This document shows, one piece after another, positions 17,221 to 31,273 of a DNA stretch of 60,006 bases. The notes beneath the pieces were generated by a model that was given only the letters and a program-made list of their open reading frames with translations, was not told the origin of the DNA and searched no databases. Position 1 is the first letter of the stretch, and each line of letters starts with the position of its first letter. This DNA is from Verrucomicrobiia bacterium (GTDB taxonomy: Bacteria > Verrucomicrobiota > Verrucomicrobiia > Palsa-1439). The stretch lies in assembly GCA_049511095.1 (NCBI GenBank), contig JBEKYJ010000003.1:1-60006 (forward strand), written 5' to 3'. The position numbers were made by a program, and so were the translations under genes.

Positions 17221-18753
17221 ATGCAGGATACAATCGCAGCCAATCCACTTCGGGAAGGCCTCAGCACGCAGCAAGCGCCGGAACCGTGCGCCTTGGTTAT
17301 CTTCGGCGCCACCGGCGACCTCACCCACCGCAAGCTCGTCCCGGCCCTCTATAACCTCGCGCACGAAGGACAGCTCCCGCAGTCGTTCGTTATCGTTGGT
17401 TTCGCGCGCCGGCCGAAGACCCATGACCAGTTTCGTGCCGAGTTGCGCGACGCCGTAGCGCAGTTCTCGCGCTTCCAGCCCATCAACCCCGCCGTGCGGG
17501 ATGCGCTGGCGCAGGCGATTTTCTACCACCAATCGGAGTTTGCGGACCCGAAAGGGTACCAGACGCTCGGCGAATTCCTGCAAAGACTTGACGCCGAGCG
17601 CGGCACCGCCGGCAATCGTCTCTTCTACCTCGCCACGTCGCCGACGGAGTTCATCGGCATCATCGAACAGCTTGGCGCGAGCGGCGTGGCCCGGACGCGC
17701 GGATCACCGCCGCGCATCATTGTCGAGAAACCATTCGGCCGCAGCCTCCCCACGGCCCACGAGTTGAACCACAAGTTGGCCGGTGTCTTCCCCGAGCGGC
17801 AGGTTTTCCGCATCGACCATTATCTCGGGAAGGAAACCGTCCAGAACATCGTGGCTCTTCGTTTCGGCAACGAAGTTTTCGAGCCGCTTTGGAACCAGAA
17901 ATACATCGACCACATCCAGATCACGGTTGCCGAATCCCTGGGTGTGGAAGACCGCGGCAGTTATTACGACAACTCCGGCGCATTGCGCGACATGGTACAG
18001 AACCATCTGATGCAATTGCTCTCATTGGTGGCAATGGAGCCGCCTCCCGTGCTGGAAGGCGAAGCCATTCACGACGAAAAAGTGAAGGTTCTGCGCGCCC
18101 TCCGTCCGATCACACCTGACCAGGTCCAGCAGCTCACCGTGCGCGGCCAGTACGCGCCCGGCTCAATGGCGGGCAACCCCGTTCCCGGCTATCGGGAGGA
18201 AAAGAACGTGGCCCGCGACTCGCGCACCGAAACCTTTGTGGCGCTGAAATTCTTCATCGACAATTGGCGCTGGGCCGGCGTCCCGTTTTACCTCCGCCAC
18301 GGCAAGCGACTGCCCAAAGGCGTGGCCGAGATCGCCATTCAATTCCAGGCGCCCCCCGCCGTGCTGTTTGCCGCCGAATCGCCCGTTCCGCTCCAGCCGA
18401 ATGTGCTGGTGCTCCGCATTCAGCCCGATGAAGGCATCGCCATCCGCATGAACGCAAAAGTCCCGGGCAACACGATCAACCTGCAACCGGTGAAGATGGA
18501 TTTCCGTTACGGCGGCAGCTTCGGCGCCCGCTCGCCGGAAGCGTATGAACGACTGCTTCATGATATCATCCTCGGCGACTCGACGTTGTTTACGCGCCAC
18601 GACGAGGTCGAGCGTTCATGGCAGATCATCGACGCGATCATCGACGGCTGGAACGCGTCCCCTGCCCCCTTGCCTTACGAGTCGGGTACGTGGGGTCCGA
18701 CGGAAGCAGACGAGTTCATCCAGCGTGACGGTCGGGAATGGAGACGCCCGTAA
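17221..18753 (+). CDS. zwf: glucose-6-phosphate 1-dehydrogenase
   Basis: ALVIFGATGDLTHRKLVPALYNL, RIDHYLGKE and full-length G6PD similarity. Stops with TAA. Confidence 0.95.
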   Translation: MQDTIAANPLREGLSTQQAPEPCALVIFGATGDLTHRKLVPALYNLAHEGQLPQSFVIVGFARRPKTHDQFRAELRDAVAQFSRFQPINPAVRDALAQAIFYHQSEFADPKGYQTLGEFLQRLDAERGTAGNRLFYLATSPTEFIGIIEQLGASGVARTRGSPPRIIVEKPFGRSLPTAHELNHKLAGVFPERQVFRIDHYLGKETVQNIVALRFGNEVFEPLWNQKYIDHIQITVAESLGVEDRGSYYDNSGALRDMVQNHLMQLLSLVAMEPPPVLEGEAIHDEKVKVLRALRPITPDQVQQLTVRGQYAPGSMAGNPVPGYREEKNVARDSRTETFVALKFFIDNWRWAGVPFYLRHGKRLPKGVAEIAIQFQAPPAVLFAAESPVPLQPNVLVLRIQPDEGIAIRMNAKVPGNTINLQPVKMDFRYGGSFGARSPEAYERLLHDIILGDSTLFTRHDEVERSWQIIDAIIDGWNASPAPLPYESGTWGPTEADEFIQRDGREWRRP

Positions 18754-19847
18754 TCATGCCCGACCGCGCACAATTGGAAACATTTACCGCCGGCACCGAA
18801 ACCGCCGTCGACGTGGCGCAGATCGAGCGCCAGCTCCACGAGTTGTGGCAACTGGCCGCGGAATCGGAGAAGGACCCGTCGCAACGTCAGATCACCCGCG
18901 ACTGCCTCTTCAACTTCATCGTCCTCTGTGAAACCGACGCGGGGGCCGCGCACGCCGGCGAGGTGATCAGCTCGCTCACGAGTCATCATCCGTGCCGGGC
19001 GATTGTGCTGTCGGCCGGGTTGGACTCCGCCCCAGCGGAACTGTCCGCCTCCATTTCCGCCCATTGTCACCTCGCCGGCACGGGACAAAAACAGGTTTGT
19101 TGCGAGCAGATCGCGATTCGTGCCGCCGGCCAAAGTGTGGCGCACCTCGGCTCAGCCGTACTTCCGCTGCTGGAGTCCGACCTGCCGACGATCGTCTGGT
19201 GGCAGGGCAACTTTCTGGAAAGAATCGATCTCTTTCGTCGATTGGTGGCGGCGGCGGACCGGGTCATTTACGACACGTCAGCCTGGACCCAAGCGCCATC
19301 GCAGCTCGCCGGTCTGGCCCGCGTCATCACCGAATATCCGCGCTGCAGTTTTGCCGACTTGAGCTGGACGCGGTCGGGCTTGTGGCGGCGACTCGCGGCG
19401 GAGTTTTTCGACGAGCCGCAGTGCCGCGCCGAACTCAAGCGCATCCGTACAGTGGACATCCTTCATGGCGGCGGGCCGGGGGCCGTCGTGCGCGCGTTGC
19501 TGTACGGTTCGTGGTTCGCCGCCCAACTCCACTGGCCTGTCCCCGAGGCGAAAACGAGGATTCATCTTTCCCGGCGCGATGATCCCGAAGCCGCGTCGGT
19601 GGGCATTTTGTCGGTCGCCATCAAGACCGACCGTGCCACGTTTTCGATTCGCAGCAACCGCGGTGAGAACACGGCGAGCGCGACCGTCGAGATGCCCCAT
19701 GCCTGTGGTCTGCCGCGTAAACGCGCGTTCTGGCGGTCGGATGATGCCTCCCTGCTGTCACAGGAACTCGACCATTCCGTACGGGATGCTGTCTATGAGA
19801 AGTCGCTGGCGATGACGGTCGCGTTGCTTGAGGAAAGCTCGCGCTGA
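18738..19847 (+). CDS. opcA: OpcA-like glucose-6-phosphate dehydrogenase assembly protein
   Basis: Immediately follows and overlaps zwf. The N-terminal VDVAQIERQLHELW and the NFIVLCE pattern are typical of OpcA. Alternative start ATG 18756 sits behind GGAG. Confidence 0.75.
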   Translation: METPVIMPDRAQLETFTAGTETAVDVAQIERQLHELWQLAAESEKDPSQRQITRDCLFNFIVLCETDAGAAHAGEVISSLTSHHPCRAIVLSAGLDSAPAELSASISAHCHLAGTGQKQVCCEQIAIRAAGQSVAHLGSAVLPLLESDLPTIVWWQGNFLERIDLFRRLVAAADRVIYDTSAWTQAPSQLAGLARVITEYPRCSFADLSWTRSGLWRRLAAEFFDEPQCRAELKRIRTVDILHGGGPGAVVRALLYGSWFAAQLHWPVPEAKTRIHLSRRDDPEAASVGILSVAIKTDRATFSIRSNRGENTASATVEMPHACGLPRKRAFWRSDDASLLSQELDHSVRDAVYEKSLAMTVALLEESSR

Positions 19848-19944
19848 GGCGCAAGAAGAACGCGGCGCTGTTTTTTCGATTGCCACTCCTTGGAAGGCGC
19901 GCTACACATGGTGGCGGGGAACTTCGCAACAAAAGGAGGAGGTA

Positions 19945-20673
19945 ATGAAACGGTCGTTTCTTGTTTGGGCCCTGTTTCTGGGCGCTTGGGTTGGTCAACC
20001 CGCCATTTCGCATGGGCTGGCTCCGTCACCAGTCGGCACATGGGAAGTCTCCATTCTCGGCTTCGATACGGGTACGTCGATCATGACATTCTCCAATGAC
20101 TTCACGGTCACCGGCTGCGGCATCATGCGGCATCAATTCGGATTCTTCACGCTCGCAGGCAACTGGAGCCTTGACGCCCATGGCGGCGTGATTGTCTCCT
20201 ACCTTCTGTCAACCAACGGTGTCGGCAGCGGCGGCGCCAGTTTCACCGCCCGCCTCTTACACTCAGGGAGGTTCCGCGGGAGCGGACACGACGATAACGG
20301 CAAACTGCTTCACTTCAAGGGCGAACAGCCGTCGAATCTTCCGGACCTGACCGGTTCATGGACGGCGGTCGTCAAACGTCGCGGCAAGACCCTCCTTGAA
20401 ACCTACGACATTACTGCATCGACCAATTTCCCGGCGGTCTTCGACGTCACTGGAAATGGGTCGAGCGAGACAGCAGGCTCGTACACTCTCACGGGCACCA
20501 TCATCGCCACGCCAAACAACAAGCTTAATGCGTCCATCGACCGCACATTCGGTGCCGAAACCCAGCACAGTTCGCTCGCCGGGAGAGTCAAGCACAAGGA
20601 TTCCGACATGCGACTGAAGGGTCGCGACGACACGAACGTGCATCTGTCGATCAAAGCGGTGAACGGTTCCTGA
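19945..20673 (+). CDS. secreted hypothetical protein with an internal two-fold repeat
   Basis: Strong SD AGGAGG before ATG 19945. Signal peptide MKRSFLVWALFLGAWVGQPAISHG. Two similar halves (GTWEVS...FTVTG... / GSWTAV...FDVTG...). Confidence 0.65.
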   Translation: MKRSFLVWALFLGAWVGQPAISHGLAPSPVGTWEVSILGFDTGTSIMTFSNDFTVTGCGIMRHQFGFFTLAGNWSLDAHGGVIVSYLLSTNGVGSGGASFTARLLHSGRFRGSGHDDNGKLLHFKGEQPSNLPDLTGSWTAVVKRRGKTLLETYDITASTNFPAVFDVTGNGSSETAGSYTLTGTIIATPNNKLNASIDRTFGAETQHSSLAGRVKHKDSDMRLKGRDDTNVHLSIKAVNGS

Positions 20674-20739
20674 CGGCGCCGGGGTTTCCGGGATTGACCG
20701 TTTTGGAAGCTTTCACCTAGAGTGGCGCCCGACCGCGCC

Positions 20740-22011
20740 ATGAACATCCTTGTCATCGGAAACGGCGGGCGCGAACACGCGCTTGTCTGGAAGATCGCCC
20801 AAAGCCAGCGCGTCCGAAAGCTCTTCTGCGCTCCGGGCAACGCCGGCATCGCCGAGTTGGCGGAATGCGCGCCGATCCCGGCCACGGACATCGACAAGCT
20901 CGCGGCGTTCGCTTCCGAGCAGAAGATCGATCTTACCATCGTCGGCCCCGAAACGCCCTTGTGCGCCGGCATCGTCGACGTGTTCAATGCCCAGGGGCTG
21001 CGTATTTTCGGCCCCAATAAACGCGCCGCCCGATTGGAAGGCAGCAAGGTTTTCGCGAAAGAGATCCTGCTGAAATACAATGTGCCGACGGCGTCTGCGG
21101 CCATTTTCAACAACGCGGGTGATGCCCGGGCCCACCTTCGAAAGGTCGGCGCGCCGATTGTGGTGAAAGCCGACGGGCTCGCGGCCGGCAAAGGCGTGAT
21201 TGTCGCGTCGTCCGTCGAAGAGGCCGAGCAGGCCGTCGCCGAAATCATGGAGCGAAAGGTCTTCGGCGCCGCGGGCGCGCAAGTGGTCATCGAGGAATGC
21301 CTGTGCGGCGAAGAACTGTCCGTCATGGCGCTCGTAGATGGCCAGTCCTTCCAGATGCTGGCGTCCGCGCAGGACCACAAGCGCGCACTCGATGGCGACC
21401 GCGGTCCGAACACGGGCGGCATGGGCGCGTATTCGCCGACGCCGTTGCTGGACGAGAAGCTCCACGAGCAGGTGGCCGGGATCTTCCGGCAGACGCTGGC
21501 CGGGTTGCGGGCGGAAGGCATCCAGTACCGCGGCGTGCTCTACGCCGGCTTGATGATCACCCCACGCGGTCCACAGGTGCTGGAGTTCAATTGCCGTTTT
21601 GGCGATCCCGAAACCCAGGCTGTGCTGCCGCGGATGGATTTCGATTTGGTGGAGGCAGCGGAAGCCACCCTCAACGGCTCGCTCGACCGCCTGGCGTTGA
21701 AATGGAAGAGCGAGGCGGCGGTCTGTGTGGTCATCGCGGCCGGCGGGTACCCGGGCCGATACCAACCCGGCCAGCCGATTGCAGGGTTGAAAGAGGCCGC
21801 CAAGTTGGGTAAGGTTTGCGTGTTTCATGCGGGCACGCGGCGGAACGCCGGCGGTCAAATCGTCACGGATGGCGGACGGGTCCTGGGTGTTACCGCGCTC
21901 GGTGAGAATATTGAGAAGGCGGCGCGGCGCGCCTACGAAGCTGTCCAGCAGATTCATTTTGACGGCGCCCACTTTCGCCGCGATATTGCCGCCCGTGCGA
22001 TACAGAAGTGA
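20740..22011 (+). CDS. purD: phosphoribosylamine--glycine ligase
   Basis: MNILVIGNGGREHALVWKIAQS, full-length PurD ATP-grasp. Confidence 0.95.
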   Translation: MNILVIGNGGREHALVWKIAQSQRVRKLFCAPGNAGIAELAECAPIPATDIDKLAAFASEQKIDLTIVGPETPLCAGIVDVFNAQGLRIFGPNKRAARLEGSKVFAKEILLKYNVPTASAAIFNNAGDARAHLRKVGAPIVVKADGLAAGKGVIVASSVEEAEQAVAEIMERKVFGAAGAQVVIEECLCGEELSVMALVDGQSFQMLASAQDHKRALDGDRGPNTGGMGAYSPTPLLDEKLHEQVAGIFRQTLAGLRAEGIQYRGVLYAGLMITPRGPQVLEFNCRFGDPETQAVLPRMDFDLVEAAEATLNGSLDRLALKWKSEAAVCVVIAAGGYPGRYQPGQPIAGLKEAAKLGKVCVFHAGTRRNAGGQIVTDGGRVLGVTALGENIEKAARRAYEAVQQIHFDGAHFRRDIAARAIQK

Positions 22012-22060
22012 AACTGGCGGAAGGACCCGCGGGAACAGAAATTTGATTTTGCGAGGTACG

Positions 22061-23188
22061 ATGAAAACAGTGGCCGTAACAATCAGCGCCGCGCTTGCGC
22101 TCCTGCTGGCGGGGGCAACGTCGTTTTGCCGTGCCGCCAACGTCGATCCGTCTTTGCGACAGACGATGGAGATCATCAGCGTTCTCAAATCGAATTACGT
22201 CGACCACGACAAACTCGACGAGAAACTGCTGAACGAAGCGACCGTAACCGGTATCCTGGGGGCGCTGGGCCGCGGGGCCGTGATCCTCGCGCCGGAGACG
22301 CCATCAACCAACGGCACCAAAGCCGTTGACAGCGAGCTGAAACCGGCGGGTCCCCTCGCCCGCGCAGAGGTCATCGATCCCCATATCGGCTACATCCGTC
22401 TGGCCGATGTGACGGAGGGGACCCCGGCCGCGCTCGATGCGGAACTGAAAGGATTCGCCGACGCAAAAGTGGCGGGCTACGTGCTTGACCTTCGTTTTGC
22501 CGATGGCACGAACTTTGCCGCCGCCGCCGCGGTGGCGGGTCGATTCCTGGACGACGGACAGGAAGTGTTCACGCTGAAGAGTTCGGATAAGGGCGCGCAG
22601 GTCTTTCGGGCGGGTTCGGACATCAAGTCCGCGTCGTCCAACGGGTCCGACCTGGCTTCCGCGCCACTGATGCTGCTGGTAAACGCGGAAACGCGAGGGA
22701 GCGCCGAGGCCCTAGCCGGTGCGTTGCGCGCGCAGGACCGTGGCATCATTATCGGTTCGCAAACCGCAGGCTCGGCGGCGGCCTGGGAAGATGTGAAATT
22801 GAGCGATGGCCGCACGTTGCGCATCGCCACGGCCAAGATCGTGTTGCCCCACCTCACTGGCGCGGGGCCGCAAATCGACATTTTTCCCAATGGAATTACG
22901 CCGGACGTGGCCGTCAAGATTGAAGTCCAGACGGAACGCGCGGTGGTGCTCGCGCAAACCAACGAGACGTTGACGGCGAGCCTGCAGTTGCGCGTGAACA
23001 AGAACAATTTGACGGAGGCGCAGTTGGTCAAGGCGTTCCGGGGAGAGGCCGTCAGTCGCTTTGACAAGCCATCGCCCGTCGACAAGGCGCACGAAGAGGA
23101 AGACGATATCCAAAACGTGCGCGACGTGGTGCTGCAACGGGCGGTGGATATTCTGAAGGGGATCCGCGTGCTGTTGTCCTGGCAATGA
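22061..23188 (+). CDS. S41 (C-terminal processing peptidase)-like secreted protein, possibly non-catalytic
   Basis: Signal peptide from ATG 22061. S41-like core GYVLDLRF...[33 protein letters not shown]. The usual TFGKG lysine position reads TAGSA. Confidence 0.65.
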
Positions 23189-23237
23189 GGCGCGGACGCG
23201 GCGCGATCCTCCCGTCGTCCGGACGCAAAAGGATTCG

Positions 23238-25460
23238 ATGAAGAAGATTCTGTTCATCTGCACAGGCAATGTTTGTCGCAGCCCGATGGCGGAGGGCCTG
23301 CTCCGGCACATGCTGCGCGGTCGCAACGACGTTCAGGTGGCCTCCGCGGGCCTCGCCGCGCTTGACAGCCTGCGGGCCACGGATGCCGCCATCAACGTCA
23401 TGGCCGAACTTGGCATGGACATTTCCTCGCACGTCAGCCAATCGTTGAACAGCGATCTGGCGCGGCAGGCGGATTTTATTTTTGTGATGACCCACCAGCA
23501 TCAGGACACGCTCCAGACGCTTATTCCGTCCGCCGCTGAGAAGACGTTTCTCGTGCGCGAGTTCGAGGAGTCCCGCGCCGGCGAGAACAAAGACATCGCC
23601 GATCCGATTGGCCAGTCCATCGATGTGTACCGCCGTACGCGCGACCAGATTCGCGACGCGTTGCCGAGCCTGATCGTGTTCATGGACCAGACCACGGCCG
23701 CGGCACGCAGGGTGACCCGGGAAGTCACGGCGCCGGCCACGAATGAAGAAGCCCGGCCGTTGCGCATCGCGCTGGCGGGCGATCACGGCGGCGTCGAGAT
23801 CAAGGCAGCGTTGAAGGATTGGCTGGCACAGCACGGTTATCCATTCTCCGATTTTGGCACACACACGACCGAGCCGGTGGATTACCCTGAGTACGCGTTT
23901 ATCGTCGCGCGAGAGTTGCTGGCCGGAAATTTTGACCGCGGGGTGCTGGTCTGCAAGAGCGGCATCGGCATGACCATTGCCGCCAACCGGTTTCCCGGCG
24001 TGCGCGCCGCCATGGTCAGTAACGAACAGTGGGCCCGCCTCAGCCGCGAGCACAACAACGCCAACGTCCTTGTGTTATCGGGCATCGAACTCAACGGGGA
24101 ACAAGCCAAGCAACTTTTGGACGTCTGGTTGCACACGGACTTCGGTGGCGGTCGCCACGCTCGCCGCGTCGACGAAATGGACCATCCACCTGTCATGAAC
24201 GTCACCTCGACACCCTCAAAAAAGACATCGGCGCTGGCAGTGGCTGACCCCGAGATTTTCAGCGCCGTCCAGCGTGAGAAGCAACGCCAGCAGGAAAACA
24301 TCGAGTTGATCGCCAGCGAAAATTTTGTCTCGCCCGCGATTCTCGAAGCGGCGGGCTCGGTGCTCACGAACAAGTACGCTGAAGGCTACCCCGGTAAGCG
24401 TTATTACGGCGGCTGTGAATACGTGGATATCGCCGAACAACTCGCGATCGACCGCGCCAAACAGCTTTTCGGCGCCGAACACGTGAACGTCCAGCCGCAT
24501 TCCGGTTCGCAGGCCAACATGGCGGTGTACTTCGCCACCATCCAGCATGGAGACACGATCTTGACAATGGAGCTGGCCCACGGCGGCCATCTCACCCACG
24601 GCTCGCCGCGCAATTTCTCGGGCCGCTTCTACAAGGTCGTGCACTACGGTGTGCGCCAGGACACCGAAAGGATCGACTACGATCAACTGGCCAAGCTCGC
24701 GCAGGATTGCCGCCCGAAGATGATCACCGCCGGCGCCAGCGCGTATCCGCGGATCATCGACTTTCAGAAGATGCGCGAGATTGCCGACAGCGTCGGCGCG
24801 CTGCTCTTTGTCGATATGGCGCACATCGCGGGCCTAGTTGCCGCCGGCATTCATCCCAGCCCCGTACCCTTGGCCGATTTCGTCACCACGACCACGCACA
24901 AAACGCTGCGCGGCCCGCGCGCCGGTTTGATTCTCTGCAAAGCGAAATACGCCAAGGACATCGACAGTTGGGTGCTGCCGGGTATTCAAGGCGGGCCGCT
25001 CATGCACATCATTGCCGCGAAAGCGGTCTGTTTCCTCGAAGCGATGAAGCCCGATTTCAAGGACTATCAACGACAGATCGTGAAAAACGCCAAGGCACTC
25101 GCCACCGCGTTGGCAGCGCACGGTTTCCGCATCGTCAGCGGCGGGACGGACAATCATTTGATGCTCGTCGATCTCCGCCCGAAGAAACTCACCGGCAAGA
25201 TTGCCCAGGAATCGCTCGACCGCGCCGGCATCACGACGAACAAGAATCTTATCCCGTACGATCCCGAGAAGCCGCTTGTCACCAGCGGCATCCGCCTCGG
25301 CACGCCTGCTGTCACCACCCGCGGCATGAAAGAAGCCGAGATGGACCAGGTCGCCGCGCTCATCACCGAAGTGCTGGCGAAGCCAGACGATACAGCCCTG
25401 CAAGCCAGCGTAAAGCAAAAGGTGCGCGCCCTGACCGCGAAATTCCCACTGTCGTATTAG
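23238..25460 (+). CDS. glyA: tri-domain fusion: LMW protein phosphatase (aa 1-150) + ribose-5-phosphate isomerase B (aa ~174-314) + serine hydroxymethyltransferase (aa ~330-740)
   Basis: Phosphatase motifs: CTGNVCRS P-loop and DIADPIG. RpiB motifs: [11 protein letters not shown] and [20 protein letters not shown] motifs: [34 protein letters not shown]. One continuous frame, ending in TAG. Confidence 0.9.
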
Positions 25461-25514
25461 GGTAAGTTCGAATCTCGAAGTTCGAAACAAGTCCGAATTC
25501 CCCAATCGGCAATC
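25350..25514 (+). repeat. direct repeat copy A: last 37 codons of glyA plus a TTCGAA-rich tail
   Basis: Aligns with 27733-27909 at roughly 85-90 percent identity by eye. Ends exactly at the stop codon of the convergent 25515-27581 gene. Confidence 0.9.
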
Positions 25515-27581
25515 TCACGCGCCGGCAGCTACCGTCTTTCGTGGTGGCAGAAACAGGACGACGTAAGACAGCGCGTAAAGCACCAAGGCAACCAACCAGA
25601 GCTCCCGGAAGCCGATGACGAGCGAACTGTACTCGATCAACCCTCCGATGACCGCGCCGAGCAAGTTCGAAGCAAAAGCCAGATCAACGTTCGGCGTGTG
25701 CTTGTATGAGCGCGCAAAGATGAAAGCGGCAAAAAAGATGGGCGAGGCCATCAGCATCATGGAAACAAGGAGGCGCACGATTAATCCTGTGCGTAACAGT
25801 ATGTGGATGGGGAACACAAAGTTAATCATGACAGCGGCAGCCAACAACCCGTAGAGCAGGTGGAGATTGAATGACTGAATACGGTTCATCCACAGATTGG
25901 CGAGCAACACGACGATCAAGATCGCGCTGAAGACGATCGAGTTGACCACCCAGGTCGAGCCGAACAGCATCGCGAAGCGTGTCACACTGACGGTTTCGAT
26001 GAGCAGGAAAGCAACGCCGAGGAAAAAGAAGTGCCCATTGACCGTTTGCATTTTGCCCTGCGACGCGAAAACGACGCACACCAGCGTGATGAGCGCCATG
26101 GCTTCAAGAGCCAGACGATACTCCGGCGGCACCTTGCGTCCTGCCAGATAGAAAAAAGGCCAGTCGTCCGTGGCCGGATTGACCATCGGAATGTCTGTGG
26201 TTTGCACGTTGTGGATGTATTTCTTTACACCCGGTCCGGCAAAAAAGCTGGGCGATCCCATTGGATCCGGGTCCTTCACGTACGGCTTCTCACCAAAAGC
26301 CTGGGTCAACATATGGAACATTCGGCGATTGAGATACATATTCCCCAGGGTGTGCTTGACGACAACGATGCCATCGTCCTTCAGAAGACTTCGAGCTTCC
26401 TGAAAACTTTCGACGGTGTAGAGAAAAGAATCGAGCCGCACTGACGACATGCCGGAGAAGAGCCGATGAGCATCGAGGAACCCGAAGATGATCATGTCGT
26501 ATTGGGAGTGGGTTTTGTTGAAGAACGAACGCGCATCATCGATGAACACATGCACGCGGGGATCGCTGTACGGTTGTTCGGCATGAGCGACCCGCCCCAA
26601 ATTGAGAATTCCGGGGTCGATCTCCACGGCGTCGACGTGACGCACGCCGTAGCGCAAGGCCGCGGCGACATCATTGCCCGTGCCGGTGCCAATGATCAAG
26701 ACATCGTTGTAGGGGAAGTCGGGGACGCTGAAAGGCGTGACGTAGAAGGTCACGATCTTGGTTATATTGGTGTGATCCTGTTGCACCCGGGGAGACAGAT
26801 CGATCGCTTGCTGGTAAAAGTCGCCGCTCAATTCCACGCGGAACCCCGGCGTGTTACGGAGGGCGGGCAGTTCCACCGGGCGAACCATTTCGTCTCGGGC
26901 CTGTAAGTCCCCGTTCCCGTTCCACTCGAGCGGATACACACCCAGCGTGTGGTACGGCGTCCAGAAATACATTTCTCCCGCCAACCAGACCACGAGCACG
27001 GTTGTCACAGCGATCAATGCGTTCAAGGCAAGCCAACTTTTATCGATGCGGACAAACCACAACAGACCCAGCATCACGATGCCGAACCACCACCAAGGAC
27101 CCGCGTTGAGAAACGACACGAGCGTGAATGCCAACACTCCGAGCAGGCTGCCCAAAATGTTGATCACATAACCTCGGAGTGGCGGGGATACCGCTTTGAG
27201 GCCTGCTCCAATTTGCTGCCCAAAAGGCACAAAGACCATGGCAACGAGAACGAAAAGAAGGCTCAAGCTCTCGGTCAGCGACAAAAACCACAGGACGTGA
27301 CGCTTGTACTCGGCATAATACACGTCATCGGGAATCGGGCCGGTCATACCGAATTGATTGAACATGATGCCGACAGCCACGAAGCCCAGTAGCGCCAAGG
27401 GTTGCCAGGCAAGCCAGCGTCGTCCTCGTCCCGTCAGCATCGCACCCAGTCCCAAGCCCAGGAATGCGCCGATCAGTATGAAATTCGTGAAATAGGCCAA
27501 CACGCGCTCGTAGGCGGGCACCCAACGGATCAACGCCAGCTCCACGAACAGCGCGAGAAAACTAGCGACGAATAGATCCAT
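25515..27581 (-). CDS. membrane-embedded spermidine-synthase-like protein (SAM-MTase fold flanked by multi-TM regions)
   Basis: VLIIGTGTGNDVAAALRYGVRHVDAVEIDPGILNLG...IFGFLDAH core, with many TM helices on both sides. Start ATG 27581 (MDLFVASFLALFVELALIRW) preferred. The ORF is open up to 27722. Confidence 0.8.
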   Translation of the reverse strand: MDLFVASFLALFVELALIRWVPAYERVLAYFTNFILIGAFLGLGLGAMLTGRGRRWLAWQPLALLGFVAVGIMFNQFGMTGPIPDDVYYAEYKRHVLWFLSLTESLSLLFVLVAMVFVPFGQQIGAGLKAVSPPLRGYVINILGSLLGVLAFTLVSFLNAGPWWWFGIVMLGLLWFVRIDKSWLALNALIAVTTVLVVWLAGEMYFWTPYHTLGVYPLEWNGNGDLQARDEMVRPVELPALRNTPGFRVELSGDFYQQAIDLSPRVQQDHTNITKIVTFYVTPFSVPDFPYNDVLIIGTGTGNDVAAALRYGVRHVDAVEIDPGILNLGRVAHAEQPYSDPRVHVFIDDARSFFNKTHSQYDMIIFGFLDAHRLFSGMSSVRLDSFLYTVESFQEARSLLKDDGIVVVKHTLGNMYLNRRMFHMLTQAFGEKPYVKDPDPMGSPSFFAGPGVKKYIHNVQTTDIPMVNPATDDWPFFYLAGRKVPPEYRLALEAMALITLVCVVFASQGKMQTVNGHFFFLGVAFLLIETVSVTRFAMLFGSTWVVNSIVFSAILIVVLLANLWMNRIQSFNLHLLYGLLAAAVMINFVFPIHILLRTGLIVRLLVSMMLMASPIFFAAFIFARSYKHTPNVDLAFASNLLGAVIGGLIEYSSLVIGFRELWLVALVLYALSYVVLFLPPRKTVAAGA

Positions 27582-27732
27582 TTGCACCGAGCCAGAGGAT
27601 GCGTCGGAGACGGGCCGCGGCGACGGCTCGGCGTGCGGTGTTACAGGCAAGTGTGACGTATCAGCTGACACGAATTGGGTATTTCTACCCGAACTGTGGC
27701 GAATCCGCAACACACCTTGCATCCCACGCGCA

Positions 27733-27909
27733 GATCGCCGCGCTTATCACGGAAGTGCTGGCGAAACCCGACGATGCAGCTCTGCAAGCCAGCGTGAAAC
27801 AGAAGGTGCGCGCCCTGACCGCGAAGTTTCCGTTGCCGTACTAGTAGGGATAAGTTCGAATCTCGAATTTCGAAACTCGAAACAAGTTCGAATTCTTCAA
27901 TCGGCAATC
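27733..27909 (+). repeat. direct repeat copy B: orphan relic of a glyA 3-prime end plus a TTCGAA-rich tail
   Basis: Encodes [39 protein letters not shown] with no upstream SHMT body. Differs from copy A mostly at synonymous positions. Confidence 0.9.
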
Positions 27910-28111
27910 AGGGCTTGTCGAGCAATCACATTTCTCGCTACACTCGGTCGCGATGCAGGCGAGCGCATACCAAGTCTGCGGCGGCTGTACCCAGAAGACC
28001 CTTGCGATAGCTTCCACCCGAAGACGATCTCAATTGGACCATGACCCCCGGCACCGGCGACTACGAGATCATCATCGACCGCAACAATTTTATCGATGAA
28101 AGGTTTGGAAT

Positions 28112-31100
28112 ATGGCTGCGATGAAACCTGAAGAGAGTTGGCTGCGCGCTGACGACAAGGTGCGGAAGAACCTGCCGCCGGGCGTGAAACTCGTGCGCAC
28201 GCTACGGGGACATACGGGCTACATCGGGCGCATCGCGTGGTCGCCGGACGGGCGAATGTTGGCCTCGCCGTCGGAGGACAAGACGATCCGGCTGTGGGAT
28301 GCCGAGACGGGCGAGTGCCTGCGCATGCTGGAAGGACACGAGGACCAAGTCTATAGCGTCGCCTTTGATCCGACGGGCCGCACGCTGGCCAGCGGGAGTG
28401 GCGACAAAACGGTCAAGCTGTGGGAGCCGGCCAGCGGCAAACTGCGCCGCACGCTGAAAGGGCACCAGTCCGCGATTTGGAGCGTCGGCTTCGATCCGGC
28501 GGGCCGCACCTTGGCCAGCGGCGGTTCTGACGGGACGGTCAATCTTTGGGATCTGGCCTCTGGAGAAGTTCATCGCACCCTAGGACCACACCCTTCGTAT
28601 GTATCAAGCGTGGCCTTTGACAGACAGGGTTCCTTCCTAGTATGCGCGGTCGGCTTCGGTAGCCCAATGGTCAAGCTGTGGGAGACATCCAGTGGCAAAG
28701 TCCTTCACACCCTCACTGGGCACGAAGGCCAAGTAAATTCTGTCGCTATCGACAACGAGGGACTATCTGTAGCAAGTAGTGCCGGCGATAAGACGATCAA
28801 GTTGTGGGCAGCGGACACTGGACAGCTCATTCGCACTTTAGAAGGACACACGAATGATGTGAATTGCGTCGCATTTATTCGAGATGGGCAACTGTTGGCG
28901 AGCAAAGGCTGTGGCGGCGACAACACTGTGCGCCTCTGGCACAGCAAGAACGGCGTTTGCGTCGCCAAGATCTCGGAGCCAGCTGTGGGGCGAATCGTGC
29001 CTGGTCTTGCCTTCCACCCGCGCCTGCCACTTCTCGCCACGGCCGGTTCAGATCCCGGCACGCCGAGAGAACAGTGTGACCGCGTCATCCACATCTGGGA
29101 GCTGGACCTTGCCGTCCTGCTCGGCCGGGTGGCAGAGCCAACCGCCCACTACGTCAACGCCAAGGTGGTGTTGGTGGGCGACACAGGCGTGGGCAAGACT
29201 GGTCTAAGCCTGGTGTTGAACAGCCAACCCTACAAGGAAACCGACTCGACGGCGGGGCGGCACGTGTGGACGTTCGGTTCACAGGAAGTGAGTGTCGGAA
29301 GCAACGTCACGCAGACCCGCGAGACGCTGTTGTGGGATTTGGCCGGCCAGCCGGGCTACCGCGTCATCCACCAGTTGCACCTCAACGAAGTGGCTGTCGC
29401 GCTCGTGGTGTTCGATGCGCGCAGCGAGACCGATCCGCTGGCCGGCGTCCGGCACTGGGAGCGTGCCTTGCGCCTAGCGCAACAGCGTCAGGGGACCGCA
29501 GGCGTGCCCATGAAGAAGTTTCTGGTGTCCGCCCGCAACGACCGCGGCGGCGTGTCCATCGGTGAGGACCGCGTGCAGAAGATCCTCGATGAATTCGGCT
29601 TCGACGGTTACTTCAAGACCAGCGCCAAGGAAGGCTGGCAGGTCAAAGAATTACGGGCAGCCATTGAGCAGGCGGTCGCTTGGGAAAAGCTGCCGGAGGT
29701 TTCGTCTTCGCAATTGTTCGCCGACATCAAGTCGTTCCTGCTGGAGGTGAAGAAGACGGGACGGTTGCTGGCTCCTGCGGGCCAGCTTTACGACGACTTC
29801 GCCCGCCAGAATCCCGACACGGTGGTGAAAGTGGCGAACCTCCGGGACCAGTTCGTTACGTGCATCGGCCGGCTGGAAAACCGTGACCTGATCCGCCGCC
29901 TGACCTTCGGCGGCTATGTGCTGCTCCAACCGGAACTGTTGGACGCCTATGCCTCCGCGATGGTTAACACGGCGAAAGAGGAACCGGACGGCCTCGGTTC
30001 GCTGGCGGAAGAAGTCGCGCTCGCCGGCAAGTTCTTCGTGCCAAAGGAGCAGAAGATCACGGACGCCGGCCAAGAGCAGTTGCTGTTACACGCGACGGTG
30101 GAAGAACTGGTCCGGCACGACCTGGCGCTGCGGGAAAACGCGGATGACGGGCGCTACCTGGTCTTTCCATCGCAGTTCAACCGCGATTACGAAGACGCGC
30201 CCGAACCGAAAGGCAAGGCGGTGGCGCTGACCTTCGACGGGCCGGTCCAGAGCCTTTACTCGACGCTGGCGGTGCGGCTAGGTCACAGCGGATTGTTCGC
30301 GACCCGGCGGGTGGAGATGTGGCGAAATGCGGCGGTGTTCACCGCCAAAGCGGGTGGCAAGTGTGGACTGTTCCTGCACGAGTTCGCCGAGGGGCGCGGC
30401 CGCTTGATCCTCTTCTACGACAAACAGGCCAGCATTGAGACGCGCTTCCACTTCGAGGAATTTGTCATAGCCCACGCCAATCAGCGCGCGCTGGATGACA
30501 CGGTCGAACTTGTGCGCTTCTTCGTGTGTCCCGATTGTGGCGACCCGGTGCCCGACAGTTATGTGAAGCGACTCAGGGAAAAAGGAACAATGGAGTTCAA
30601 TTGTCCTTGCGGCGGAACCGTGTCACTGGCCGAGCCGAAGGAGCGGATTCACTTCAAATCGAAAGTTGAGGCGATGGAGAAATCCGCCGACCGACAGCGG
30701 GACTTCGATGCGTTCGTCCTGTCGGCCAAGGGGGAGACGAGGACGAGGAGCTTCCAAGACTGGGCCGGAGGCGAGCGGGTCACGCTGGCGATTGTGTTCA
30801 CCGATGTCGTCGGCTCGACGGCCCTGGGAGAGGAAATCAGGGATGAGGCCATGGACGCAGTCCGGCGGGCGCACTTTGCCCAAAGCCGGAAGCTGATCGG
30901 CCAGTTCAAGGGCCGGGAAATCAAGACCATTGGCGACAGCTTCATGGCGGCGTTCAGATCCGTGGATGCCGCTCTGGACTACGCTTTGGCGTTGCATGGG
31001 AATACCGGCCATCCGCAGGTGCAGATTCGCGCCGGCATTCATATCGGGCCGATGCAGGTGGAGGAAGGCGATGTGTTCGGCGGCACCGTGAACTTCGCCG

Positions 31101-31273
31101 CCCGCGTGGTTGGCGCCATTCAGGGTGCGGAAATCTGGCTGAGCGAGCGGGCGAAAGAAGACATTGATCGGCTCGGTGCCGCACAGCACAAAGGGTTGGG
31201 ATGGAAACAGCACGAGCGGGTCACCATGAAGGGCTTCCCCGGCACCTTCACTCTTTGGTCGTTGCGGAAGTAA
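28112..31273 (+). CDS. WD40 (7 blades) - Roc/Ras-like GTPase - COR-like - zinc ribbon - class III adenylate/guanylate cyclase multidomain protein
   Basis: Seven GH...D-K-T-[IV]-[KR]-LW blades (aa 25-335). GTPase motifs G1 GDTGVGKT, G3 WDLAGQ and SARND (aa 349-520). Zinc ribbon CPDCG...CPCGG (aa 806-834). Cyclase motifs FTDVVGST, KTIGDSFMAAF and GGTVNFAARV (aa 888-1050). Confidence 0.9.
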   Translation: MAAMKPEESWLRADDKVRKNLPPGVKLVRTLRGHTGYIGRIAWSPDGRMLASPSEDKTIRLWDAETGECLRMLEGHEDQVYSVAFDPTGRTLASGSGDKTVKLWEPASGKLRRTLKGHQSAIWSVGFDPAGRTLASGGSDGTVNLWDLASGEVHRTLGPHPSYVSSVAFDRQGSFLVCAVGFGSPMVKLWETSSGKVLHTLTGHEGQVNSVAIDNEGLSVASSAGDKTIKLWAADTGQLIRTLEGHTNDVNCVAFIRDGQLLASKGCGGDNTVRLWHSKNGVCVAKISEPAVGRIVPGLAFHPRLPLLATAGSDPGTPREQCDRVIHIWELDLAVLLGRVAEPTAHYVNAKVVLVGDTGVGKTGLSLVLNSQPYKETDSTAGRHVWTFGSQEVSVGSNVTQTRETLLWDLAGQPGYRVIHQLHLNEVAVALVVFDARSETDPLAGVRHWERALRLAQQRQGTAGVPMKKFLVSARNDRGGVSIGEDRVQKILDEFGFDGYFKTSAKEGWQVKELRAAIEQAVAWEKLPEVSSSQLFADIKSFLLEVKKTGRLLAPAGQLYDDFARQNPDTVVKVANLRDQFVTCIGRLENRDLIRRLTFGGYVLLQPELLDAYASAMVNTAKEEPDGLGSLAEEVALAGKFFVPKEQKITDAGQEQLLLHATVEELVRHDLALRENADDGRYLVFPSQFNRDYEDAPEPKGKAVALTFDGPVQSLYSTLAVRLGHSGLFATRRVEMWRNAAVFTAKAGGKCGLFLHEFAEGRGRLILFYDKQASIETRFHFEEFVIAHANQRALDDTVELVRFFVCPDCGDPVPDSYVKRLREKGTMEFNCPCGGTVSLAEPKERIHFKSKVEAMEKSADRQRDFDAFVLSAKGETRTRSFQDWAGGERVTLAIVFTDVVGSTALGEEIRDEAMDAVRRAHFAQSRKLIGQFKGREIKTIGDSFMAAFRSVDAALDYALALHGNTGHPQVQIRAGIHIGPMQVEEGDVFGGTVNFAARVVGAIQGAEIWLSERAKEDIDRLGAAQHKGLGWKQHERVTMKGFPGTFTLWSLRK

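Follow-up and report, generated by a model that had tools for sequence, protein, structure and literature searches.

A predicted three-enzyme fusion protein of Verrucomicrobiota joins a YwlE-like phosphatase, ribose 5-phosphate isomerase B and serine hydroxymethyltransferase, and appears to have lost its middle enzyme repeatedly

The stretch of DNA analysed here (60,006 nucleotides [nt] of contig JBEKYJ010000003.1, from the Verrucomicrobiia bacterium assembly GCA_049511095.1; hereafter the window) contains a gene that encodes a protein tyrosine phosphatase of low molecular weight (LMW-PTP, or PTP), a ribose 5-phosphate isomerase B (RpiB) and a serine hydroxymethyltransferase (SHMT) in a single open reading frame (ORF). 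With a probability of roughly 0.8, this is a genuine, vertically inherited fusion gene, whose predicted product would be one polypeptide of ~80 kDa with three separately folding enzymes on flexible linkers. The fusion is not special to the window; it is phylum-wide and already deposited in databases. Comparison of the homologous loci suggests that what persists is the link between phosphatase and SHMT, because RpiB has repeatedly been deleted or inactivated in place.

The gene reads from ATG to stop as one ORF of 740 amino acids (aa); the ORF list and a reading of the DNA agree that it holds no stop codon or frame break. Its start is well placed, since an AGGA sequence lies at 23230-23233, 4 nt 5' of the ATG, and since the N-terminus MK(K/T)ILF is common to the relatives in an alignment of 42 full-length proteins to the window protein, on which the conservation counts given below are based. 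A preliminary description, made from the sequence alone, had seen three complete enzymes here in one frame without an intervening stop; this is borne out by full-length LMW-PTP, RpiB and SHMT domains, with all the motifs that it quoted found in place (coordinates in Table 1). The phosphatase module matches Pfam LMWPc over aa 4-145 (E 2.4e-32; 112.5 bits vs. a cut-off of 23.2; profile positions 1-143 of 144), with the P-loop CTGNVCRS at aa 8-15 (C8-T-G-N-V12-C13-R14-S15; nt 23259-23282) and the general acid Asp122 in the D-P-I-G motif (DIADPIG; Asp122 at nt 23601-23603); C8, R14, S15, and D122 are kept in 41-42 of the 42 relatives and in all fused loci. The RpiB module matches Pfam LacAB_rpiB over aa 177-313 (E 3.5e-48; profile positions 1-137 of 138), passes the NCBIfam rpiB equivalog TIGR01120 (145.2 bits, cut-off 138.65) and NF004051 (158.3 bits, cut-off 135), and aligns without gaps to the solved RpiB structures 3he8, 1o1x, and 1nn4. 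It contains Asp182-His183, the catalytic Cys239 (nt 23952-23954), Ser241, His272-Asn273 and Arg306-His307-Arg310, all of them kept in relatives; the counterparts in Escherichia coli RpiB we take to be the catalytic Cys66, the Ser/Thr two residues on, an N-terminal Asp-His, a His-Asn pair, and the C-terminal Arg-His...Arg phosphate site. The SHMT module matches Pfam SHMT over aa 334-709 (E 9.3e-172; profile positions 2-399 of 399) and the NCBIfam SHMT model NF000586 far above its cut-off (659.8 bits vs. 335; profile positions 1-403 of 404); eleven active-site columns, including Lys555, which binds pyridoxal phosphate (PLP) in T-T-T-H-K (nt 24900-24902), are identical in all loci. With their catalytic residues intact, the three modules of the window protein are all predicted to be active. 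The phosphatase would hydrolyze a phospho-monoester or a phosphoramidate by means of Cys8, Arg14, and Asp122, the RpiB module would interconvert ribulose 5-phosphate (Ru5P) and ribose 5-phosphate (R5P), and the SHMT module would interconvert serine plus tetrahydrofolate (THF) and glycine plus methylene-THF.

Mean identity of the 42 relatives to the window protein rises along the chain, from 65% in the phosphatase to 72% in RpiB and 84% in SHMT; the two linkers are far more variable, the first with 10-29 residues and 36% mean identity, the second with 6-19 residues and 51%. In an AlphaFold2 model of the monomer, the phosphatase and RpiB modules have a predicted local distance difference test score (pLDDT) of ~90, and SHMT is modeled confidently except for its N-terminal arm; in SHMT dimers, this arm packs on the partner subunit. 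The pLDDT falls below 50 at aa 160-172 and aa 317-331; the linkers, which had been called low-complexity, are indeed both variable among the relatives and predicted to be disordered. With disordered linkers and a predicted template modeling score (pTM) of only 0.50 for the monomer, no fixed arrangement of the three modules is predicted with confidence; the model gives a picture of three folded beads on flexible strings. The modules would then act independently on one polypeptide, probably without a fixed composite active site, and the benefit of the fusion would lie in obligatory equimolar co-expression and co-localization at a fixed stoichiometry.

That the single-ORF fusion is genuine is confirmed at the level of sequence. 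Two contigs assembled independently of each other (ENA ERZ27250022 and JGI 3300038415) encode the identical 740-aa protein, with the same neighbors; when relatives were sought among 5.8 billion proteins and the best 120 clusters at 90% identity were taken, 118 of them contained all three Pfam domains (67-95% identity, mostly 705-758 aa), and the two exceptions were both on contigs of 2-3 kb. The fusion is therefore considered real on two grounds, its recovery in separate assemblies and the same architecture with differing linkers in more than 100 clusters and in 60 species representatives. GC content (0.60-0.62) and GC content at third codon positions (0.77-0.80) are uniform over the three domains, which argues against a recent chimera or the horizontal transfer of one domain. 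The sequences are thus public and the enzymes ordinary; NCBI nr lists the window protein itself under MGA2137357.1 as [quoted passage not shown] which names only one of its three parts. A description of the PTP-RpiB-SHMT or PTP-SHMT architecture was not found in the full-text literature, with annotation tables and subscription journals outside the reach of that search; a genome paper on Methylacidiphilales lists the gene simply as glyA. The architecture, its spread through the phylum, the repeated loss of RpiB and the change in the phosphatase P-loop appear to be undescribed in the searchable literature.

The distribution of the fusion was examined by scanning one genome per GTDB species with an alignment of the N-terminal 333 aa; the best 80 loci were used (more exist), and architectures were called on all stop-to-stop ORFs of these loci with domain hidden Markov models derived from the alignment of 42 relatives. 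PTP, RpiB, and SHMT share one ORF in 60 of these 80 loci, three of them cut by contig ends; the hosts are mostly labeled Verrucomicrobiota and include Pedosphaera/Limisphaerales, Verrucomicrobiales, Chthoniobacterales, Methylacidiphilales and others. One further locus (L052, 5986-8170) has the triple fusion with a frame break inside SHMT that leaves two overlapping ORFs, and may be a pseudogene or an assembly error. Nine loci, from Udaeobacter, Terrimicrobiaceae, Chthoniobacteraceae, "Spartobacteria" and subdivision 3, encode PTP-SHMT without RpiB, and two (L055, L075) have a separate PTP followed by RpiB-SHMT. Three separate adjacent genes occur in four loci, those of Bacillus haynesii (L065), two Actinomycetota (L066, L067) and an uncultured bacterium (L061), and an rpiB–glyA pair occurs in one Deferribacteres metagenome-assembled genome (MAG; L078); the remaining three are uninformative fragments (L072, PTP with a frame-broken RpiB; L080, RpiB only; L082, PTP only). 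Among clusters at 50% identity drawn from 1.84 billion proteins, more triple fusions were found at 38-58% identity, together with several two-domain RpiB-SHMT clusters whose named members are MAGs of Kiritimatiellae and Victivallales (e.g., MBQ6924650.1 and MBR6076496.1); no PTP gene was found nearby in the one RpiB-SHMT locus that was read. The preliminary description had proposed that relatives be searched for two- and three-domain versions, and both exist: the three-domain form is widespread, and PTP-SHMT and RpiB-SHMT forms accompany it. Five of the triple fusions carry unexpected organism names, Bifidobacterium or Bifidobacteriaceae (L005, L007, L034) and Akkermansia muciniphila (L011, L016); they are Verrucomicrobial triple fusions in the context of purD and an S41 peptidase gene and group among Pedosphaera-like sequences in the tree, and the given names look unreliable.

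In a neighbor-joining tree of the SHMT domain, all fused proteins fall into one clade, apart from the unfused outgroups. The gene had been interpreted as a Rosetta-stone fusion, and this interpretation stands, as the components are separate genes in L061 and L065-L067 and fused in 60 species loci, and as the identical protein is found in two assemblies. The Bacillus neighborhood to which it had been compared is also found as described: the ywlE–ywlF(rpiB)–(ywlG)–glyA string of B. haynesii has the same three families, consecutive, in the same order and on the same strand. It differs from the fusion in keeping three separate genes, with a gap of ~770 nt before glyA, and in its phosphatase P-loop (CTGNTCRS vs. 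CTGNVCRS here). The fused and split states can also lie very close together. In the three-gene locus L061 (4449-6696), PTP and RpiB are in the same frame with a single stop codon between them, so that the fused state is one mutation away, and in L055 (5941-8268) the PTP gene and the following RpiB-SHMT ORF are likewise in one frame, separated by a single stop codon. The RpiB-SHMT proteins of Kiritimatiellae and Victivallales, which belong to the same PVC group of phyla (Planctomycetota, Verrucomicrobiota, Chlamydiota), share the junction of the triple fusion, GGRHxRR(V/L)xK(I/M/L) followed by 10-15 residues and then DPE(I/L), and differ in being without the phosphatase module. From this distribution of architectures, the likely origin is an early ancestor of the Verrucomicrobiota in which an old ywlE–rpiB–glyA gene string lost its stop codons; as far as sequences can tell, the fusion of this string is real and ancient.

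Within the fused clade, the middle enzyme has been lost in two ways. In the nine PTP-SHMT loci (L068, L070, L071, L073, L074, L076, L077, L079, L081), a low-complexity linker of 23-50 residues replaces RpiB, and no rpiB was found within 6 kb. In two Methylacidiphilales loci (L063, 5923-8172; L064, 5974-8175) the domain is present with His183 replaced by Ser and the catalytic Cys239 by Gly, in L069 (5947-8172) the same residues are replaced by Ser and Asp, and all three loci have also replaced His272 and Asn273. Judged by these residues, the RpiB-like domain of L063, L064, and L069 is a pseudo-enzyme, for which the annotation "ribose 5-phosphate isomerase B" would be wrong. The dead domain is 71% identical between L063 and L064, compared to 73% for the phosphatase module, and apparently survives as a folded spacer. 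In L031, two phosphate-binding arginines of RpiB are gone, and the nearest neighbor of L031 in the SHMT tree, L068, is without the domain. In 100 bootstrap neighbor-joining trees of concatenated PTP and SHMT, proteins without RpiB fell into at least three separate clades in all 100 replicates, those with a dead RpiB into two clades in 82, and both groups together into at least four clades in all 100. By this evidence, RpiB is dispensable within the fused clade, either deleted (in at least three clades) or catalytically inactivated (in Methylacidiphilales and one other lineage). In the window protein, RpiB would accordingly be an active passenger, and the phosphatase–SHMT tether the constant element.

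The same pairing, with the phosphatase N-terminal to SHMT and without RpiB, also exists outside the Verrucomicrobial clade, in proteins (P0137, P0314-P0317) that are 50-76% identical to one another, have short or different linkers, and have T, A or I as the fifth P-loop residue; the nearest unfused SHMTs among those listed for P0137 are labeled Elusimicrobia or Endomicrobia. One such gene (L084, 6001-7704) directly follows a Sua5/TsaC gene, which corresponds to the ywlC position, with a one-base overlap, and is followed by genes for a PNP/UDP phosphorylase and a dCMP deaminase.

The phosphatase module was most closely related to Bacillus subtilis YwlE; the best relatives of aa 1-150 in the PDB are the YwlE structures 1zgg and 4kk3 (E 2.8e-26), followed by Wzb and other PTPs at ~1e-17, and the matches to all named LMW-PTP equivalogs in NCBIfam (Wzb, Etp/PRK11391 and ArsC types) stay far below the cut-offs (84.9 vs. 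247, 71.6 vs. 243 and 62.2 vs. 157.6 bits). With the YwlE/PtpB arginine phosphatases, it shares the fold, the CX5R(S) P-loop with a second Cys at its position 6, the Asp that acts as general acid, and the D-P-x-G D-loop. It differs in being joined to metabolic enzymes, in a D-loop D-P-I-G whose Ile is nearly invariant in fused relatives (D-P-F-G in YwlE), and at P-loop position 5 (aa 12), where 35 of 41 relatives have V, six have I and none has T. Every Verrucomicrobial locus has V or I at this position, and Thr is found in the unfused genes of Bacillus (L065), of L061, and of a Planctomycetaceae MAG (L072). YwlE and Drosophila DARP are both reported to depend critically on Thr at this position for their activity on phosphoarginine, and most LMW-PTPs have Ile there (PMC7772506, citing Fuhrmann 2013). 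The module had initially been placed among LMW-PTP or arginine phosphatases; the arginine-phosphatase assignment is rejected because the defining Thr is absent in the window protein and in all its fused relatives. By descent the module is YwlE-like, but the single determinant of arginine-phosphatase specificity that was tested is absent from it. As a side observation, the PDB entry 4egs, deposited as "Ribose 5-phosphate isomerase RpiB," aligns to aa 3-146 of the phosphatase module and not to RpiB; it apparently took its name from a neighboring or mis-annotated gene.

The pairing of phosphatase and SHMT is probably the functionally meaningful link; the phosphatase would most likely be regulatory, acting on or beside SHMT and nucleotide-precursor metabolism, and would not be a phosphoarginine-specific YwlE orthologue. 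A more specific proposal, which we put forward tentatively and consider unlikely as it stands, is that the YwlE-like phosphatase serves SHMT as a dedicated partner, acting either on SHMT itself, with phospho-control of the flux of glycine and one-carbon units as the result, or on a phosphorylated compound by which SHMT is fed or regulated. If this were so, the PTP-SHMT fusions in at least two lineages, the survival of the tether and the ywlE/ptpB–glyA neighborhood of Firmicutes would reflect one unrecognized functional pair, and the Val/Ile that replaces Thr in the P-loop would be the sign of a changed substrate in the fused clade. In Staphylococcus aureus, the arginine phosphatase gene ptpB adjoins glyA (PMC8001253). 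A phosphoserine phosphatase that would supply serine for SHMT was also considered; no evidence for it was found here, and it remains a low-probability branch. LMW-PTPs are poor on alkyl phosphates.

Several points weigh against the main interpretation, of three enzymes on one polypeptide with the phosphatase–SHMT tether as the constant element. The persistence of the tether may be mechanical and is no proof of selection, because an in-frame deletion of the middle domain preserves the fusion by default, and fission would require a stop codon as well as a new start. The phosphatase has been split off at least twice (L055, L075), and RpiB-SHMT proteins without it exist in Kiritimatiellae and Victivallales, so that it is not indispensable either. 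The trees are simple neighbor-joining trees of one or two domains, and the single polypeptide, its expected dimerization through SHMT and RpiB, and the three activities are predictions from sequence.

The most probable of the alternatives is neutral fusion, in which stop codons were lost in a tightly packed housekeeping operon and the product persists only because fission is mechanistically harder, with no coupling beyond co-transcription; we consider it possible, if rather doubtful. The unconstrained, disordered linkers and the low pTM, with no fixed interface predicted, are in keeping with it, as are the single stop codon that separates PTP from RpiB in L061, the loss or inactivation of RpiB without breakage of the protein, and the biochemistry of the three enzymes, which do not catalyze consecutive pathway steps. 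It sits less well with a gene string that is kept across phyla as distant as those of Bacillus, Actinomycetota, and Verrucomicrobiota, with PTP-SHMT fusions that have other linkers and P-loops outside the Verrucomicrobial clade, and with the conservation of the dead RpiB domain between L063 and L064; fission, moreover, does occur, yet in only two of ~72 loci in the clade.

A metabolic coupling of RpiB and SHMT, in which R5P, glycine and one-carbon units would be supplied together for purine synthesis, perhaps within an assembly, appears unlikely. The oxidative pentose-phosphate branch yields Ru5P; R5P leads by way of phosphoribosyl pyrophosphate to phosphoribosylamine, glycine is used by PurD, and one-carbon units go to purines and thymidylate. 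This coupling would account for several features of the gene neighborhoods: a homolog of purD, whose product consumes glycine and R5P-derived phosphoribosylamine, is found upstream of the fusion gene in 23 of the fetched loci, Methylacidiphilales among them, and zwf and opcA, which lead by way of 6-phosphogluconate to the RpiB substrate Ru5P, adjoin the fusion in 11 and 10 loci, respectively. It would also account for the RpiB-SHMT fusions of Kiritimatiellae and Victivallales, and it has a parallel in other SHMT fusions with the pathway partners DHFR (dihydrofolate reductase), FolB, Tmk and GcvT. However, at least four times in the fused clade RpiB was deleted or inactivated with the remainder of the protein retained, the coupling offers no explanation for the phosphatase module, and RpiB and SHMT have no substrate in common, which makes strict channeling between them impossible.

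It is very unlikely that the fusion is only genetic and that separate enzymes arise from it, either by internal initiation or by proteolytic cleavage of the linkers. The in-frame ATG at 24195 (Met320), 14 codons 5' of the SHMT domain, had been suggested as a possible start for a separate SHMT, the exposed and disordered linkers could be cut, and an S41 peptidase gene lies directly upstream. Yet the ATG falls within the length-variable second linker, Met occupies its column in only 3 of 42 relatives, and a reading of the DNA found no purine-rich run resembling a Shine-Dalgarno sequence upstream of it; a conserved second start for free SHMT was rejected on these grounds. The S41 peptidase ORF has a hydrophobic segment resembling a signal peptide, and its product is for that reason probably not cytoplasmic. 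An artefact, in which a sequencing or assembly error would hide a stop codon or frameshift between three ordinary genes, could be suspected of a window taken from a metagenome-assembled genome, the more so as frame breaks do occur now and then in relatives (such as L052, within SHMT), but it is effectively refuted by the two independent assemblies of the identical protein and by a frame that stays uninterrupted in 60 species representatives and in over 100 distinct clusters, whose linker sequences differ.

The genes upstream of the fusion follow the order zwf, opcA, a 281-aa ORF, purD, and an S41 peptidase gene (Table 1).

Table 1. Coordinates of the fusion gene, its modules and linkers, and the neighboring genes in the window.
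Feature	Position (nt)	Strand	Basis or remark
Complete fusion gene	23238..25460	+	740 codons plus stop TAG at 25458-25460
LMW-PTP (YwlE-like) phosphatase module, aa 1-148	23238..23681	+	Pfam LMWPc, conserved residues, pLDDT ~90
Linker 1, aa 149-174	23682..23759	+	Ala/Thr/Arg-rich
RpiB module, aa 175-315	23760..24182	+	Pfam LacAB_rpiB, TIGR01120, residues
Linker 2, aa 316-333	24183..24236	+	Pro/Ser/Thr-rich; holds in-frame ATG 24195-24197 (Met320)
SHMT module, aa 334-740	24237..25457	+	Pfam SHMT, NF000586, PLP lysine Lys555
zwf	17221-18753	+	G6PD_N/C domains
opcA	18738-19847	+	OpcA domain
281-aa ORF between opcA and purD	19828-20673
purD (phosphoribosylamine-glycine ligase)	20722..22011	+	GARS_N/A/C domains
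S41-family peptidase, directly upstream of the fusion	21827..23188	+	Pfam Peptidase_S41; real start probably later, near MKTVAV

In 23 loci the S41 peptidase gene has purD on one side and the fusion on the other, and in the window it is separated from the fusion by 49 nt. The zwf-opcA pair, upstream in the window, is found directly downstream of the fusion in Chthoniobacterales, for triple and PTP-SHMT forms alike. The 281-aa ORF has no Pfam match; by its position it might have been expected to be a 6-phosphogluconolactonase. L003 has a version of it with 49% identity, and none was detected next to the fusion in the other, more distant loci. Overall, the neighbors fit a loose theme of nucleotide precursors, from which coupling could be inferred. 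The whole window contains no tRNAs and no Rfam match at gathering thresholds, including the glycine, THF and ZTP riboswitches, and the promoter and terminator scan gave uninformative counts, at shuffle expectation.

Downstream of the fusion gene, a direct repeat of ~170 nt (25347-25514 and 27731-27909, 86% identical with small indels) brackets a minus-strand gene for a 735-aa membrane protein resembling spermine/spermidine synthases (25515-27722). The final 114 nt of the fusion gene and the sequence that follows belong to the first copy, and the second retains a remnant of the SHMT C-terminus; both copies have roughly the same similarity (80%) to L003, the closest species representative, whose N-terminal 333 aa are 85% identical. 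The distance from the fusion to fba is ~1 kb in L003 (8223-9297) vs. ~6.5 kb in the window, where positions 25515-31273 hold the spermine synthase-like gene and a gene for a 1053-aa protein with WD40 and Roc-GTPase domains (28112-31273); this looks like an insertion of ~5.5 kb in the window beside the repeat.

Fusions of SHMT with other proteins are also present in public databases, as FolB–SHMT, DHFR–Tmk–SHMT, DHFR–SHMT, MeaB–SHMT, and SHMT–GcvT (P0139, P0140, P0143, P0227, P0260). They have in common with the fusion described here that SHMT tolerates N- and C-terminal partners; they differ in that their partners, except MeaB, are enzymes of folate, one-carbon or thymidylate metabolism, whereas neither a Cys phosphatase nor a pentose isomerase is a pathway neighbor of SHMT. 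Each of the three enzymes is ordinary by itself, and fusions of several enzymes are common; what is unusual is the joining of enzymes that are not neighbors in a pathway.

For practical purposes, metabolic reconstructions of Verrucomicrobia can miss glyA or rpiB because the proteins are named after one of their domains, either "ribose 5-phosphate isomerase B" or "serine hydroxymethyltransferase," and reconstructions of Methylacidiphilales can credit an RpiB activity although the catalytic residues are gone. In evolutionary terms, most of a phylum appears to have made one protein out of an old and unexplained gene neighborhood, ywlE–rpiB–glyA. The phosphatase–SHMT element that persists within it offers a lead on YwlE-type phosphatases outside the Gram-positive McsB/ClpC system, and its persistence bears on whether bacterial SHMT is under phospho-control.

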